64,000 nucleotides of DNA from Enterobacter phage CC31. The notes under the pieces are model-generated. The model searched no databases and was not told the origin of the DNA. It was given only the letters and a program-made list of their open reading frames with translations. This document shows positions 1,974 through 31,758 of the stretch, in pieces; position 1 is the stretch's first letter, and every line of letters starts with the position of its first letter. Location of the stretch: the sequence record NC_014662.1; one strand, 5' to 3'. The translations under genes were made by a program, and so were the position numbers.

Positions 1974-3257
1974 ATGGCTAACATCCATGACCTTCTGCGC
2001 GAATCAACTACAACGACGAGTTCAATTTCTGCCCGTCCTAGCCTCGTTGCATTGACTCGCGCTACTACTAAATTAATTTACTCTGATATTGTAGCTACTC
2101 AGCGTACTACTCAACCTACTGCTGCTTTCTACGGTATCAAATATTTGAACCCTAACAAAGAATTAACGTTCCTTACTGGTGCTACCTACGCAGGTCAAAC
2201 TGGTACTGAGGACCGTAAATCTATTGAAACATTAACTGCTTCAAATAAAGATTCATTTGGCAAGGGTGATTTGTTCAAATACGATGACATTGTTTACAAA
2301 GTACTTGTAGATAATCCATTTGACCAGATTACTGAAACTGATTTAGAAGTTGTAATTCAGATTTCTCTGGTTAAACTCACTACTCGTTTAATGTCTGACG
2401 CTGCTATCACTTCCAAGTTTGAAACTGCTGGAGCTGATATCGCTGAAGCTAAATTCCAAATTGATAAATGGCAGACTCAAGTTAAATCTCGTAAACTTAA
2501 AACGAGCTTGACTGTTGAATTGGCCCAGGACCTTGAAGCTAATGGCTTTGATGCTTCCAATTTTATCGATGATTTACTGGCTACTGAAATGGCCGATGAA
2601 ATTAACAAAGACATTTTACAAAGTCTTGTGACAGTTTCAAAACGATATAAAGTTGAAGGTATCACAGATACTGGATTCATCGATTTATCTTATGCATCTG
2701 CTCCAGAAGCTGGTCGTTCTCTGTATCGCATGGTATGCGAAATGGTTTCTCATATTCAGCGCTCAACATCCTTTACGGCAACATTCGCTGTAGCATCTAC
2801 TCGTGCTGCTGCTGTTCTTGCTGCATCAGGTTGGTTGAAGCATAAACCTGAAGATGATGATTATCTGTCACAGAACGCTTATGGTTTCCTGGCAAACGGT
2901 TTGCCTCTGTATTGCGATACTAACACTCCACTCGATTATGTAATCGTCGGTGTAGTAGAAGATATTGGTGATAAAGAAGTTGTATCGAGTATTTTCTATG
3001 CTCCATACACTGAAGGTATCGACCTTGATGACCCGGAACACGTTGGTGCATTTAAAGTAATTGTTGACCCAGAAAGCTTACAGCCTTCTGTAGCTTTATT
3101 CGTTCGTTATGCATTGTCTGCTAACCCGTATACTGTAGCTAAAGATGAAAAGGAAGCTCGAATCATTGATGGCGGGGATATGGATAAGATGGCAGGACGT
3201 TCTGATTTATCAGTTCTTCTTGGTGTTAAGTTACCAAAAATCATCATTGAAGACTAA
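1974..3257 (+). CDS. 24: head vertex protein gp24
   Basis: 427 aa (T4 gp24 is 427 aa as recalled); gp23-paralog-like C-terminal region; position directly after gene 23. Confidence 0.92.
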   Translation: MANIHDLLRESTTTTSSISARPSLVALTRATTKLIYSDIVATQRTTQPTAAFYGIKYLNPNKELTFLTGATYAGQTGTEDRKSIETLTASNKDSFGKGDLFKYDDIVYKVLVDNPFDQITETDLEVVIQISLVKLTTRLMSDAAITSKFETAGADIAEAKFQIDKWQTQVKSRKLKTSLTVELAQDLEANGFDASNFIDDLLATEMADEINKDILQSLVTVSKRYKVEGITDTGFIDLSYASAPEAGRSLYRMVCEMVSHIQRSTSFTATFAVASTRAAAVLAASGWLKHKPEDDDYLSQNAYGFLANGLPLYCDTNTPLDYVIVGVVEDIGDKEVVSSIFYAPYTEGIDLDDPEHVGAFKVIVDPESLQPSVALFVRYALSANPYTVAKDEKEARIIDGGDMDKMAGRSDLSVLLGVKLPKIIIED

Positions 3258-28879: not shown

Positions 28880-29101
28880 TTATCGACGATGCCACGGGAG
28901 CATGAGCTTAGTTTTCTTGACAGTATAACTTCTTTCAGGATTAGCTGCTCGAACTTTTAAGCATGTTTCCCAAGCAGCACCTTCTTCGCCATATACGCAA
29001 TAATGATTATCAAATATAACTACGCAACCGGTGCTGCTATTAATGATAGCCCAACATTCATGATAACCCATCAGAAATCTCCATGAGCAACTTGCCAGCA
29101 T
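28880..29101 (-). CDS. hypothetical protein
   Basis: 73-aa ORF. Confidence 0.4.
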   Translation of the reverse strand: MLASCSWRFLMGYHECWAIINSSTGCVVIFDNHYCVYGEEGAAWETCLKVRAANPERSYTVKKTKLMLPWHRR

Positions 29102-29958
29102 TCAACACCGATACGACGCCACATTTCAACTACTTGTGCTCGGTCATCTACTGCAAGCTTAATGTTATAATGAGGAGCAATATCGCGCCAGAAGATTTCT
29201 TCTTTTACGATATCATCTTTACGAGAATCGCCCTGCTTACGCTGCCAATGCCCATGAGTTTCACCGACATGGTCTAATACCCATTTCTGAGTCATGCGAC
29301 GATAAACAGTTTCATCTTCTTTTGTACCAGATTCGCGCCCAGATACAGTAAGAATTTTAAACCCTTTCTGCCGAAGCATTTTCAGGAGTTCAATAACCAT
29401 TTCTTTTGGAGCATCTTCAGCACATTTATCAAGGTCAAATGGTGAACGATGATGGTTATCTGCAAGAGTTCCATCAAGGTCAAAGATAACCGCTTTTGGC
29501 TTAGACAAATCAGGAACGTAAACTTTCTCAACTTCCATCAGTGTATAAAAATGGCGCAGAACATCAATCGGGACTGCTTTATCGCCACGATATTGGTTGC
29601 GCTTAACCAGTTCAGTCCAAGGAACATGGAAGTCCTGGAAAGACATTTCATACAGACCTTTGAAACGAAGTTCCCATTTCTCGACGGTTTTAGGGTTCAA
29701 GTTAGTGTCGCAGACTATAACACCTTTGGTGTGTTCAAGGTCAAGCAGAGACACTGCAGCAGAAATTTGAGCAGCTGTTACTGCACGCTCTTTATGCTTA
29801 GAATATTTGTAAGCATTGCGAGCATCAAGGCCAAACAGCTTTTCACGGAAATCATCACGAGACAGAATGTACCAACCAGGATTTTTAGCGACATATTCAT
29901 TTGCCCAAGTTGACTTTCCACAACCTGGAGCACCGCGAGTCAAAATAATCTTTTTCAT
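29071..29958 (-). CDS. pseT: polynucleotide 5'-kinase / 3'-phosphatase
   Basis: 295 aa; P-loop GAPGCGKST; phosphatase DxDGT motif (VIFDLDGTLA); C-terminus matches T4 Pnk as recalled (IGVECWQVA). Confidence 0.93.
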   Translation of the reverse strand: MKKIILTRGAPGCGKSTWANEYVAKNPGWYILSRDDFREKLFGLDARNAYKYSKHKERAVTAAQISAAVSLLDLEHTKGVIVCDTNLNPKTVEKWELRFKGLYEMSFQDFHVPWTELVKRNQYRGDKAVPIDVLRHFYTLMEVEKVYVPDLSKPKAVIFDLDGTLADNHHRSPFDLDKCAEDAPKEMVIELLKMLRQKGFKILTVSGRESGTKEDETVYRRMTQKWVLDHVGETHGHWQRKQGDSRKDDIVKEEIFWRDIAPHYNIKLAVDDRAQVVEMWRRIGVECWQVAHGDF

Positions 29959-30308
29959 TCAAGTTCCTTTACGAAGTTATCAACATCAGCCTTAGCTTTA
30001 TTATAATCAGCTAGAGTTTTAGCTAACCATTCTTCTTTGCGGCCTTTAAGCAAAGCAGACAAATATGAACCCTGAGCAAATAGCTGTGTAGTCATTAAAT
30101 TTGACATAACATTTGCTAGTTCTGGCGCTTTAGCTTTTACGGCGCGTCGTAAATTTGCTCCAGCTTCGTCTAAGTCTCTGGCGATGTTTTCAAGTTCTTG
30201 TTCTGCGCGAACTGAACCATCATCTACACGAAGTCCATACGAATAAGCATATGAAGCTTTGCGGTATTTTTCGAGTAGAATTTTAATGGACATTAGCAAT
30301 TTCCTCAA
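29955..30308 (-). CDS. hypothetical protein
   Basis: 117-aa ORF. Confidence 0.45.
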   Translation of the reverse strand: MRKLLMSIKILLEKYRKASYAYSYGLRVDDGSVRAEQELENIARDLDEAGANLRRAVKAKAPELANVMSNLMTTQLFAQGSYLSALLKGRKEEWLAKTLADYNKAKADVDNFVKELE

Positions 30309-30498
30309 TAATGACGTTTACACGCGCAGTAGCTTCATCGTATCGAGCTTTAGCTTGCATTGTTTCTACAACAAGGTCTTCGTAAGTCAAATAACCGTCT
30401 TCCATTTGCATACGAGTTTTAGCTGAACCATAGTCAATTGCGCGAGCCTTAAGTTCAGAGATAGCGCCTTCAAGAGCCATTTTAGCAAATTTGTTCAT
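30283..30498 (-). CDS. hypothetical protein
   Basis: 71-aa ORF. Confidence 0.45.
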   Translation of the reverse strand: MNKFAKMALEGAISELKARAIDYGSAKTRMQMEDGYLTYEDLVVETMQAKARYDEATARVNVIIEEIANVH

Positions 30499-30974
30499 AG
30501 TCCAAGTGCCTCATATAATGATTTACGAATATCACGAACATCTTTACCTGCTGGTCGCATTGAACCCTCGACATCCGAAATAAATCCGTTTGCACAATTG
30601 GATTTAATTTGCCCGTAAATTGAAGCTGCTTCAATAAGCTTGTCAATCAAATCACGTTTATAGTCTTCTTCCATGCGAATGCCATACCATTCATCGTAAT
30701 CTTCAACAGGAGCAAATATTTTGAACCAAGTTTCTTCTGAAATATAAGTTTGTTCTTTGAGCTTAAAGACATGAGATGGAATAGTTTCAGTTCCAGGAGC
30801 GAATACTCTCACAGAAACTACAGTAGGCTTTCCACCAATAATTTCAAACCAGGGACTCACAGTAGCTTTACGCATCAATGGAGTTTTGTGACGGGCACCC
30901 TGCATACACAATTTGCGTAGCTGGGTCTTTTTAATTGCAGATAAGAATGAGCCATCTTTTACAAAATAACGCAT
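30495..30974 (-). CDS. hypothetical protein
   Basis: ORF with probable start MRYFVKDG; no recognisable motif. Confidence 0.5.
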   Translation of the reverse strand: MRYFVKDGSFLSAIKKTQLRKLCMQGARHKTPLMRKATVSPWFEIIGGKPTVVSVRVFAPGTETIPSHVFKLKEQTYISEETWFKIFAPVEDYDEWYGIRMEEDYKRDLIDKLIEAASIYGQIKSNCANGFISDVEGSMRPAGKDVRDIRKSLYEALGL

Positions 30975-31004
30975 ATTATTTTCCTCAAAGTTTATTATCC
31001 CGAT

Positions 31005-31020
31005 GAGGCCCGAAGGCCTC
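31005..31020 (-). terminator. hairpin GAGGCC-CGAA-GGCCTC
   Basis: Read directly. Confidence 0.45.
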
Positions 31021-31102
31021 AATTAAAACGTAACTACCATTGCAAGAGCTACGGAACATGCAACTGCAGCGATGAACAGACCGAAACAAAACAGCTTTGC
31101 AC

Positions 31103-31405
31103 CTAACGTGAATTTACGCATTTTGGTTCCTTTAATTCGTAGCGATAGTAACATATCATACCATTAGCATCTTTGGTATAACGAAGAACATCATTTAACC
31201 AAATTCTAAACTCCTGAGAATCAGAATAAGGCATTCCCACGAATGGACGACCATCAACTTCAACGATAGTCCAATGCCCGTTCCAAGGCTTGATTTGGTC
31301 AGGCCAAGATGGATGCACTACCGTTGGCTGGGGTAACTCTGGTGTCTTCTGGGAACATCCAGCCAATAGTCCAATTGATAATACAGTGGCTACTAAGAGT
31401 TTCAC
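31103..31405 (-). CDS. o-spanin (outer-membrane lipoprotein spanin subunit; T4 pseT.2-like)
   Basis: 100 aa; lipoprotein signal MKLLVATVLSIGLLAGCSQ with LAGC lipobox; proline-rich; overlaps the i-spanin stop by 4 nt. Confidence 0.75.
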   Translation of the reverse strand: MKLLVATVLSIGLLAGCSQKTPELPQPTVVHPSWPDQIKPWNGHWTIVEVDGRPFVGMPYSDSQEFRIWLNDVLRYTKDANGMICYYRYELKEPKCVNSR

Positions 31406-31758
31406 TTGGTGGCCTCCTGAAACTCTAGAGTCAATTTGTTGAAAGACTCATTTAACTGCTTTTCAACCAGCTTAGGCTTAGCTTTGACCACATGCTCACG
31501 CTTGGCATCTTTAGCCATTTTAGCGTCAGACTTATCAGCCTCTGCTCTGTTTTCTTTACGAGTCTCATCATACTTATTGAGATTCACAAAGTCTGTTTTT
31601 AACTTTTCAATAGCTTTGCCATTAGCTTCAGCTATTTGTTGCATTTGCTTAAGGTCTTCTTTTAAGCCATCAATCCGTGAAGATTGATATTGAATGAACC
31701 CATAAGCTGTTAATCCGAGCGCCACTAAAATGACGTGGATGTTTGTTATTTTGAACAT
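31402..31758 (-). CDS. i-spanin (inner-membrane spanin subunit; T4 pseT.3-like)
   Basis: 118 aa; N-terminal transmembrane helix followed by charged coiled-coil-like region; immediately upstream of the lipoprotein partner. Confidence 0.75.
   Translation of the reverse strand: MFKITNIHVILVALGLTAYGFIQYQSSRIDGLKEDLKQMQQIAEANGKAIEKLKTDFVNLNKYDETRKENRAEADKSDAKMAKDAKREHVVKAKPKLVEKQLNESFNKLTLEFQEATK

Follow-up and report, generated by a model that had tools for sequence, protein, structure and literature searches.

The region described here lies in a window of 64,000 nucleotides (the whole stretch of DNA that was analysed) from Enterobacter phage CC31, sequence record NC_014662.1, a T4-like Karamvirus with 94.8% DNA identity to Klebsiella phage KaAlpha. 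All of the genes in question are on the minus strand. The downstream anchor is pseT, encoding polynucleotide kinase/3'-phosphatase (29071-29958; phrog_505, E 1e-113; Pfam HAD_PNKP and AAA_33), and the upstream anchor is the pair of genes for the o-spanin (31103-31405) and i-spanin (31402-31758), which have Rz-like spanin matches (phrog_812/phrog_739) and correspond to pseT.2 and pseT.3 in the T4 annotation. Between them, at 29955-31022, stand the three open reading frames that the earlier note had reported. In order of translation these are ORF159 (30495-30974, 159 aa), ORF71 (30283-30498, 71 aa) and ORF112 (29955-30293, 112 aa), each of which likely starts at an ATG preceded by GAGG; these starts are kept in all homologues and are the ones used by the GenBank relatives, while TTG starts would lengthen two of the frames, to 175 aa for ORF159 (30495-31022) and to 117 aa for ORF112 (29955-30308). 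Stop and start codons overlap throughout, as ATGA between ORF159 and ORF71, by 11 nt between ORF71 and ORF112, and again as ATGA between ORF112 and pseT, and the four genes form a translationally coupled unit of which ORF159 is the first.

These are genes and not chance reading frames, since each has an end-to-end match to a PHROG family (E 1e-48 to 1e-63), dN/dS against Karamvirus relatives is low, and AlphaFold2 models of ORF159 and ORF112 reach a pLDDT of about 94, albeit from alignments of only 10 and 17 sequences, shallow because the homologue searches retrieved few relatives (4, 9 and 17). With dN/dS at about 0.04-0.2, well below 1, all three are under purifying selection, and there is no sign of positive selection in these comparisons. 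Their GC content and strand match those of the flanking genes. The description of the three as having no recognisable motifs holds up, in that nothing was found in Pfam, NCBIfam, PADLOC or PDB sequences.

A fourth conserved ORF, absent from the earlier reading of the block, separates ORF159 from the o-spanin gene, whose 3' end it overlaps. This is ORF32 (MRKFTLGAKLFCFGLFIAAVACSVALAMVVTF; 31023-31121, minus strand), a hydrophobic peptide of 32 aa that matches phrog_26334 (E 1.8e-22), is annotated in KaAlpha and myPSH1140, and is present in 8 retrieved loci that span several genera; its dN/dS is about 0.02-0.05 in four of nine comparisons, the rest being higher or uninformative with only 32 codons to go by. 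Next to it, at 30975-31022 on the same strand, is an intergenic element comprising a GAGGCC-UUCG-GGCCUC hairpin, then GATAAT, then the Shine-Dalgarno sequence of ORF159, and this element is nearly invariant in 9 Karamviruses while the neighbouring codons vary. It marks the border between the spanin/ORF32 unit and the unit that runs from ORF159 to pseT. The GGCC(UUCG)GGCC hairpin occurs seven times in the 64-kb window, against 0.04 copies expected, and always between genes. Several roles for the element were considered and set aside: the sigma-70-like TTGAGG-17-GATAAT upstream of ORF159 is no more frequent than chance, a scan found no U-run after the hairpin as an intrinsic terminator would have, and a promoter/stem-loop shuffling cassette of the PeSL type is rejected because the seven copies are alike in the hairpin only and share no flanks. 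Nor is the overall folding of the 76-nt hairpin region unusual (z = -0.38).

ORF71 is, on the strength of profile comparisons, a diverged homologue of T4 PseT.1 (NP_049835, 75 aa, an 'uncharacterised 8.8 kDa protein in the pseT-alc region'). The PseT.1 profile scores ORF71 at 15.9 bits in hmmsearch, a value reached by none of 3000 composition-matched shuffles, and the ORF71 family supplies the top non-members for that profile among 2610 ORFs (E 1e-3 to 8e-3). In addition, hhalign aligns the two over their full length (59-65 columns, P 1.4e-4, although the probability is only 52.6%), ORF71 hits the PseT.1-like protein of Marfa with BLASTP at 6.5e-5, and both proteins carry an N-terminal L-x-G-x-I-x-E-x-x-x-x-A-x-x-Y-G motif. 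Both are also encoded by genes of about 70-76 aa between the spanin pair and pseT, although in Karamvirus ORF71 does not adjoin pseT because ORF112 stands between. The divergence is strong, with a pairwise BLASTP E of only 0.044 and no shared curated family (ORF71 matches phrog_26735 only, T4 PseT.1 phrog_2347 only), and ORF71 is acidic (pI 5.0) whereas T4 PseT.1 is near neutral (pI 8.0). Given that it resembles PseT.1, ORF71 is probably helical. A tblastn search found it in Karamvirus-type genomes only (29 records). None of the papers searched names pseT.1 in the main text.

ORF159 belongs to phrog_4482, which we call family A; the match (E 1.6e-63) was computed on residues 16-174 of the TTG-extended 175-aa frame, that is, residues 1-158 of ORF159 against positions 4-161 of a 162-position profile, and the gene has the family's syntenic place after the o-spanin gene. 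A tblastn search found the family in 261 phage records from many T4-like genera, T4 not among them, and it follows the o-spanin gene in at least nine genera, which by these counts makes it the commonest occupant of the interval across T4-like genera. Members such as g223 and g225 of phiR1-RT, CPT_Moon241, CPT_Mineola_227 and gp020 of STML-198 are all annotated as hypothetical, have equal length and equal position, and show full-length homology at 28-48% identity, so by sequence ORF159 is an ordinary member and not different in kind. Among Karamviruses its identity ranges from 65 to 100%, in phages that are otherwise about 91-95% alike in DNA. The family comprises just 25 clusters among 1.84 billion representatives, is confined to phages and is never fused to other domains. 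The model (pLDDT 93.9) predicts a basic N-terminal alpha/beta domain of approximately residues 1-89 (pI 9.9) and, after it, a long acidic hairpin of two helices (90-128 and 135-156). Family A therefore has a confident predicted two-domain model and no known fold relative: no PDB fold matches at E<=1e-3, and the structural neighbours of the modelled proteins are generic helical ones. In Jiaodavirus members the C-terminal hairpin is PseT.1-like (E 5e-6), whereas that of ORF159 scores only 2.8 bits, a level that 83 of 3000 shuffles attain (hhalign P 0.014-0.05), and a PseT.1-like module there was not accepted.

The shape of ORF159 might suggest a regulator that binds nucleic acid and acts on early gene expression of the phage or the host, in which the N-terminal domain would bind RNA or DNA and the hairpin would dimerise or hold a partner. 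We regard this as unlikely. The domain has a net charge of about +7, K15, R20 and K36 in it are conserved, and the gene shares its cluster with alc, a transcription inhibitor; however, charge by itself says little, the Sm-like structural neighbours are at noise level, and neither structure nor sequence comparison gives a significant match to a nucleic-acid-binding fold. Even more doubtful, indeed very unlikely, is that the proteins are lysis or envelope accessories acting with the adjacent spanins. Family A does always directly follow the o-spanin gene, and the membrane peptide ORF32 sits between that gene and ORF159, but ORF32 alone is hydrophobic; ORF159, ORF71 and ORF112 are hydrophilic (GRAVY -0.28 to -0.44), lack any lipobox, signal peptide or hydrophobic segment, and match no lysis PHROG. 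Moreover, the conserved hairpin stands between their genes and the spanin unit, and phages of Tequatrovirus and Mosigvirus achieve lysis with no family A gene.

ORF112 matches phrog_15029 (E 1.5e-48) and is predicted to be a four-helix bundle (pLDDT 94.0; helices 3-23, 28-55, 57-82 and 87-111). Profile-profile comparison and a place upstream of pseT assign it to a wider group, our family C, with hhalign giving 94.4% (E 8.5e-8) against the T-even/Dhaka-type family and 95.6% against the Moon type. A T-even-type member is found upstream of pseT in 709 records, and family C lies directly upstream of it in RB69, Dhakavirus, Moonvirus and many Tequatroviruses, including close relatives of T4. For example, RB69ORF231c, Bas39_0058/Bas37_0056, EpJS10_0215 of JS10 and CPT_Moon240 are, like ORF112, next to pseT or one small gene away. 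These relatives are of similar length (99-120 aa) and homologous over the N-terminal 60-90 residues, but only about 26-34% identical to ORF112, whose C-terminal half cannot be aligned to T-even-type members; even among Karamviruses identity runs from 30% to 99%. A PseT.1-like module in its N-terminus was ruled out, 1251 of 3000 shuffles scoring as high. The BASEL records label bas39_0058 and bas37_0056 'putative homing endonuclease', and family C is present in some close T4 relatives and absent from others, which might point to a free-standing homing endonuclease or a mobile cassette. We find this scarcely credible, given that neither HNH, GIY-YIG, LAGLIDADG nor any other nuclease Pfam domain is present in Karam-, T-even-, Dhaka- or Moon-type members, that the Karamvirus member is predicted as a 112-aa helical bundle, and that the GC content of ORF112 is no different from that of its neighbours.

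To place the locus among its relatives, annotated regions were compared from T4, RB69, KaAlpha, CkP1, Marfa, CHI14, STML-198, JS10, Moon, Mineola, phiR1-RT, UFV01, Entb_43, myPSH1140, COW86c and Bas39, and 41 T4-like IMG/VR loci, anchored on pseT, were classified with profiles. At the level of sequence, the o-spanin-to-pseT interval is shown to be a plastic accessory-gene slot, filled genus by genus with varied combinations of a few recurring families: A, B (PseT.1, including the diverged ORF71), C, and several of 55-65 aa. The combinations seen in the surveyed loci are A, A-B, A-C, B-C, B, A-D-C and none at all. CkP1 has family C duplicated in tandem, phiR1-RT has two copies of family A, and UFV01 and Entb_43 have an additional 57-aa gene. 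The present Karamvirus has the fullest common combination, with A, a PseT.1-like gene and C, while T4 has PseT.1 alone. The earlier note had described T4 correctly, whose arrangement is pseT, pseT.1 of 75 aa, pseT.2, pseT.3 and alc, with no spare space, and its caution that T4 might turn out to hold the same three genes proved needless; the block is indeed larger than in T4. Its proposal that the genes had been inserted is not supported, since ORF71 is a diverged PseT.1 and the other two families are usual occupants in T4-like phages. Because ORF71 is PseT.1-like and the families of ORF159 and ORF112 are widespread at the slot, T4 is, on this comparison, a reduced or minimal state of the slot and not its reference state. 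The slot genes resemble the clusters of 'novel ORFs' that separate conserved early genes in T4-like genomes (Nolan et al. 2006, PMC1524935) in being small, in having no database matches, in sharing strand and GC content with flanking early genes, and in varying among genomes. Unlike those ORFs they are not unique to one genome, and since their families are common to many genera, a limited repertoire is drawn on. Allelic mosaicism is also seen in pseT and the i-spanin gene, with classes of 82-84% versus 99-100%, so it is not specific to slot genes.

Might these proteins be accessory factors for RNA repair that act together with PseT and RnlA, perhaps bringing the two enzymes to cleaved tRNA or inhibiting anticodon nucleases of the host, PrrC among them? 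ORF112 is translationally coupled to pseT, families B and C constantly adjoin it, the N-terminal domain of ORF159 is basic, and the ORF159 hairpin can be superposed on the arm with which seryl-tRNA synthetase binds tRNA (6r1n, prob 0.96, 69 columns), although this is a generic helical hairpin. However, adjacency to pseT is weak evidence because T4-like genomes are collinear throughout, and neighbourhood was the sole basis on which the earlier note had linked the block to RNA repair or host defence. Transposon data (bioRxiv 10.1101/2025.11.20.689424, supplements 7 and 8) speak against it. Neither T4 pseT.1 nor Bas37 gene 0056 or 0057 is essential there, and on the clinical isolate CFE299 insertions in Bas37 pseT are depleted (log2FC -1.90, adj. 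P 0) while those in 0056 (-0.02) and 0057 (+0.12) are not; the T-even counterparts of families B and C have no effect on K-12 or CFE299 (same source). We take 0056 as family C and 0057 as PseT.1 from position, size and labels identical to those of Bas39, whose sequences were checked, and as Bas37 has no family A gene, the data cover the family-C and PseT.1 positions and not ORF159. That these genes are dispensable where PseT is needed argues against a cofactor role. Furthermore, Aeromonas-type T4-like loci (L047, L049, L051 and L052) have spanin and pseT with nothing between, none of 39 non-T4-like pseT loci has family A, B or C, and among Karamviruses the allele class of pseT is not linked to that of ORF112. 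The families are thus not needed wherever PseT is, nor do they generally co-occur with pseT, and we consider an RNA-repair role quite unlikely; the slot proteins are probably not cofactors of PseT.

What, then, might they do? The reading we favour, and think reasonably probable, is that of a plastic slot for small, binder-type accessory proteins in host takeover or counter-defence. Catalytic motifs, transmembrane segments and signal peptides are all lacking from ORF159, ORF71 and ORF112, which suggests small non-enzymatic binders. In T4 the surrounding gene cluster is expressed before DNA replication, and from this and the gene arrangement the three genes would be co-transcribed with pseT and expressed pre-replicatively. 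Early in infection they would most likely bind a macromolecule of the host or the phage in a stoichiometric manner, as 'host-takeover or counter-defence accessory proteins' that may be dispensable on laboratory hosts and beneficial only on particular enterobacterial hosts. Such a role is argued from the lack of enzyme features, the predicted small helical folds and the turnover of the genes, features that would fit many other functions too, and a host-interaction role in the broad sense would be plausible. A bolder version, to which we give only a small chance, would make the slot a counter-defence islet of enterobacterial T4-like phages, with diversifying small inhibitors, each directed against its own immunity or exclusion protein of the host, RNA-targeting ones perhaps among them. 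PseT.1-like helical hairpins (T4 PseT.1, ORF71 and the C-terminal arm of family A) and family-C bundles would then be the inhibitor repertoire, and this, if true, would account for why the combinations differ by genus and why alleles are so deeply split. PADLOC, which searches for defence proteins, returned nothing significant for the three.

The finding is of little weight in itself, since the slot families are already present in hundreds of T4-like genomes, and the three-gene order is already known as hypothetical proteins in dozens of GenBank Karamvirus genomes. There are nevertheless gains for annotation: ORF71 can be named PseT.1-like, RB69ORF231c and the BASEL 'putative homing endonuclease' genes join ORF112 in one predicted four-helix-bundle family, and T4 can be corrected to the minimal state of the slot. 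If any of the slot families does counter a host defence, the genera that carry A, B and C in all combinations would furnish a ready comparative panel.

The interval between the o-spanin gene and pseT in CC31 is best understood as an accessory-gene slot with plastic content, of a type that is well known; it holds three catalogued families and can be likened to the clusters of "novel ORFs" described by Nolan et al. 2006 (PMC1524935). All genes in the region lie on the minus strand and are transcribed in the order rnlA, alc, i-spanin (31402-31758), o-spanin, a 32-aa ORF, ORF159, ORF71, ORF112, pseT (29071-29958), the cd.x genes and cd. The earlier note had placed three ORFs of 117, 71 and about 159 aa at 29955-31022, and there they are, although the first size does not hold. 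A mechanical ORF list lets two of them begin further upstream, at TTG codons, which gives 117 and 175 aa; because the ATG starts at 30293 and 30974 are, on reading the sequence, preceded by GAGG, are kept in every homologue and are used by the GenBank annotations, we take the proteins to be 112, 71 and 159 aa long. The stop and start codons of ORF159/ORF71 and of ORF112/pseT are merged in ATGA, and 11 nt are common to ORF71 and ORF112, which makes a single translationally coupled unit of the four genes. All three ORFs are real genes, each with an end-to-end match to a PHROG family (E 1e-48 to 1e-63) and dN/dS values of ~0.04-0.2 when compared with Karamvirus relatives; AlphaFold2 models of ORF159 and ORF112 reach mean pLDDT values of 93.9 and 94.0. 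The note did count three ORFs correctly, but it overlooked a fourth conserved one (31023-31121, minus strand; phrog_26334), which encodes a 32-aa hydrophobic peptide, MRKFTLGAKLFCFGLFIAAVACSVALAMVVTF, has its own Shine-Dalgarno sequence, overlaps the final 19 nt of the o-spanin gene, and is found too in Winklervirus, EcS1 and CIP9-type loci; its role is possibly envelope or lysis related.

To describe these genes as "inserted" is to read at least some of the block the wrong way round. Four families are named here: A is the ORF159 type (phrog_4482), B is PseT.1, C is the ORF112 type (phrog_15029) and D is the ORF71 type (phrog_26735). We compared the synteny of annotated regions from 16 T4-like phages, and sorted by iterated profiles the ORFs of the 41 T4-like loci (alc and spanins upstream) among 80 IMG/VR loci retrieved by pseT alignment. 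The families that fill the interval are few and recur: A, B, C, D and several of 55-65 aa. Karamviruses carry (ORF32)-A-D-C, Gelderlandvirus A, Jiaodavirus A-B, Winklervirus ORF32-A-B, Marfavirus A-B-58 aa, Moonvirus A-C-57 aa, Dhakavirus A-C, Tegunavirus A-x-A-x-C, RB69 (Mosigvirus) B-C-ORF230c, and many Tequatroviruses (G8, RB27, RB3, Bas39) B-C; T4 has B only, and the slot of Aeromonas-type phages is empty. Families A, B and C are absent from Aeromonas-type T4-like phages and from 39/39 non-T4-like pseT loci. By tblastn, 261 phage records hold ORF159 relatives and T4 has none. The family C protein of T-even type was found in 709 records, adjacent to pseT in every case. The note's statement that T4 has pseT.1 alone here was correct: pseT, pseT.1 (75 aa), pseT.2, pseT.3 and alc overlap or abut, with no room left. 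From this distribution, Karamvirus is the fullest common combination and T4 the minimal one, and the exact three-gene arrangement is already present in public Karamvirus genomes. None of this would surprise a T4 specialist.

In Yersinia phage phiR1-RT family A is duplicated (g225 and g223; 1789-2265 and 2495-3001 of its locus, L011), the copies being 28% identical. The Karamvirus slot of Citrobacter phage CkP1 reads A-C-C, with a tandem family C duplication (L004 3462-4162; 52% identity) and no D (ORF71-type) gene. In JS10, tblastn detects a family A homologue where no gene is annotated between pseT.2 and EpJS10_0215 (L008 2501-2947); either the gene was overlooked in annotation or the copy has decayed.

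Turnover is high within Karamvirus. The 3.3-kb stretch around the three ORFs has 94.8% DNA identity to Klebsiella phage vB_KaeM_KaAlpha and 91-94% to other Karamvirus genomes (Enterobacter phages myPSH1140 and UFV01, with PG7 over part only). Among Karamviruses, ORF112 identity ranges from 30% to 99% and that of ORF159 from 65% to 100%, with neighbouring genes mostly >90%. In the comparison of the window with loci L001, L012-L014 and L092-L095, however, pseT and i-spanin also fall into two allele classes each (~82-84% vs 98-100% aa identity). These assort independently of one another and of the ORF112 and ORF159 alleles, a pattern that indicates that adjacent genes recombine frequently. UFV01 and Entb_43 add to the A-D-C type a 57-aa gene between ORF112 and pseT (2456-2629 in both L092 and L093), related to Marfa gp236 (E ~5e-7) and found neither in the window nor in KaAlpha; its presence in only some Karamviruses shows that genes are gained or lost at the slot within one genus. 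A hairpin, GGCC(UUCG)GGCC, occurs 7 times in the window (24798, 31007, 33865, 41871, 54041(+), 61829 and 63052) against 0.04 expected, always intergenic, directly past a stop codon and 10-40 nt ahead of the next start. The copy upstream of ORF159 is, with its flanks, essentially invariant in 9 Karamviruses. The seven copies look like the stable C(UUCG)G hairpins that lie between cistrons in T4 mRNAs.

Three modest points are new. The first is that ORF71, which has a PHROG family of its own, most likely represents PseT.1, in diverged form, in the Karamviruses, a reading based on profile, hhalign and BLASTP similarity and on the size and slot that it shares with T4 PseT.1. Four ORF71-type proteins are the best non-members for the PseT.1 profile among 2610 ORFs (E 1e-3 to 8e-3); ORF71 itself scores 15.9 bits, equalled by 0/3000 shuffles, the two families align over their whole length in hhalign (P 1.4e-4, probability 52.6%), and in BLASTP ORF71 matches the PseT.1-like protein of Marfa (6.5e-5). 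The second is that the family C proteins of different genera belong together, and that a label given to some of them is unsupported. By hhalign, ORF112 is homologous to the T-even/Dhaka-type (94.4%, E 8.5e-8) and Moon-type (95.6%) proteins. RB69ORF231c (L097 6317-6673) is also a member, with its annotated start too far downstream: it is annotated as 78 aa behind a 120-nt gap, and its frame reaches an upstream ATG (MKILLENYIKWSDEY...), giving 99 aa that match family C end to end. In BASEL records the gene of family C that lies upstream of pseT is named "putative homing endonuclease" (Bas39_0058, L096 1501-1803, and bas37_0056), a label that looks wrong, as the genes so labelled have no detectable nuclease domain and the model of the Karamvirus homologue, ORF112, is a four-helix bundle. 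The third is a confident two-domain model of family A that has no known fold relative, in which ORF159 combines a basic alpha/beta N-domain (residues 1-89, pI 9.9) with an acidic long helical hairpin, the latter known also as stand-alone versions of 59-71 aa. We checked this hairpin and the family C N-terminus for PseT.1 likeness. A PseT.1+ORF71 profile matches A proteins of the Jiaodavirus type in their C-terminal domain (E 5e-6, 0/3000 shuffles), the window's ORF159 reaches only 2.8 bits (P ~0.03), and ORF112 gives no PseT.1-like signal; a hairpin module common to the families is thus a hint and not a result.

What might these proteins do? The note's "no recognisable motifs" was borne out, with 0/3 ORFs matching Pfam and zero matches in profile searches of PDB sequences, NCBIfam and PADLOC. 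None of the three has a hydrophobic segment, and HMMER, run exhaustively on 1.84 billion representatives, returned only 25 family A clusters (59-168 aa), without domain fusions. Together they appear to be small, phage-restricted, non-enzymatic proteins. The suggested link to RNA repair is not borne out for families B and C, in which such a specific role is unlikely. In HIDEN-SEQ data on E. coli K-12, T4 pseT.1 (17/17 TA sites hit) and, in Bas37, bas37_0056 (family C position) and bas37_0057 (PseT.1 position) are non-essential (bioRxiv 10.1101/2025.11.20.689424). On uropathogenic CFE299, Bas37 pseT is depleted (log2FC -1.90, adjusted P 0), whereas bas37_0056 (-0.02) and bas37_0057 (+0.12), whose families are assigned by position, size and label, with sequences checked for the Bas39 equivalents only, are unchanged (same source), which disfavours families B and C as PseT RNA-repair cofactors. 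Most likely, the three proteins would be small binders that work in the early stage of infection, and would be dispensable on permissive hosts, and we infer for their families an accessory, host-interaction role.
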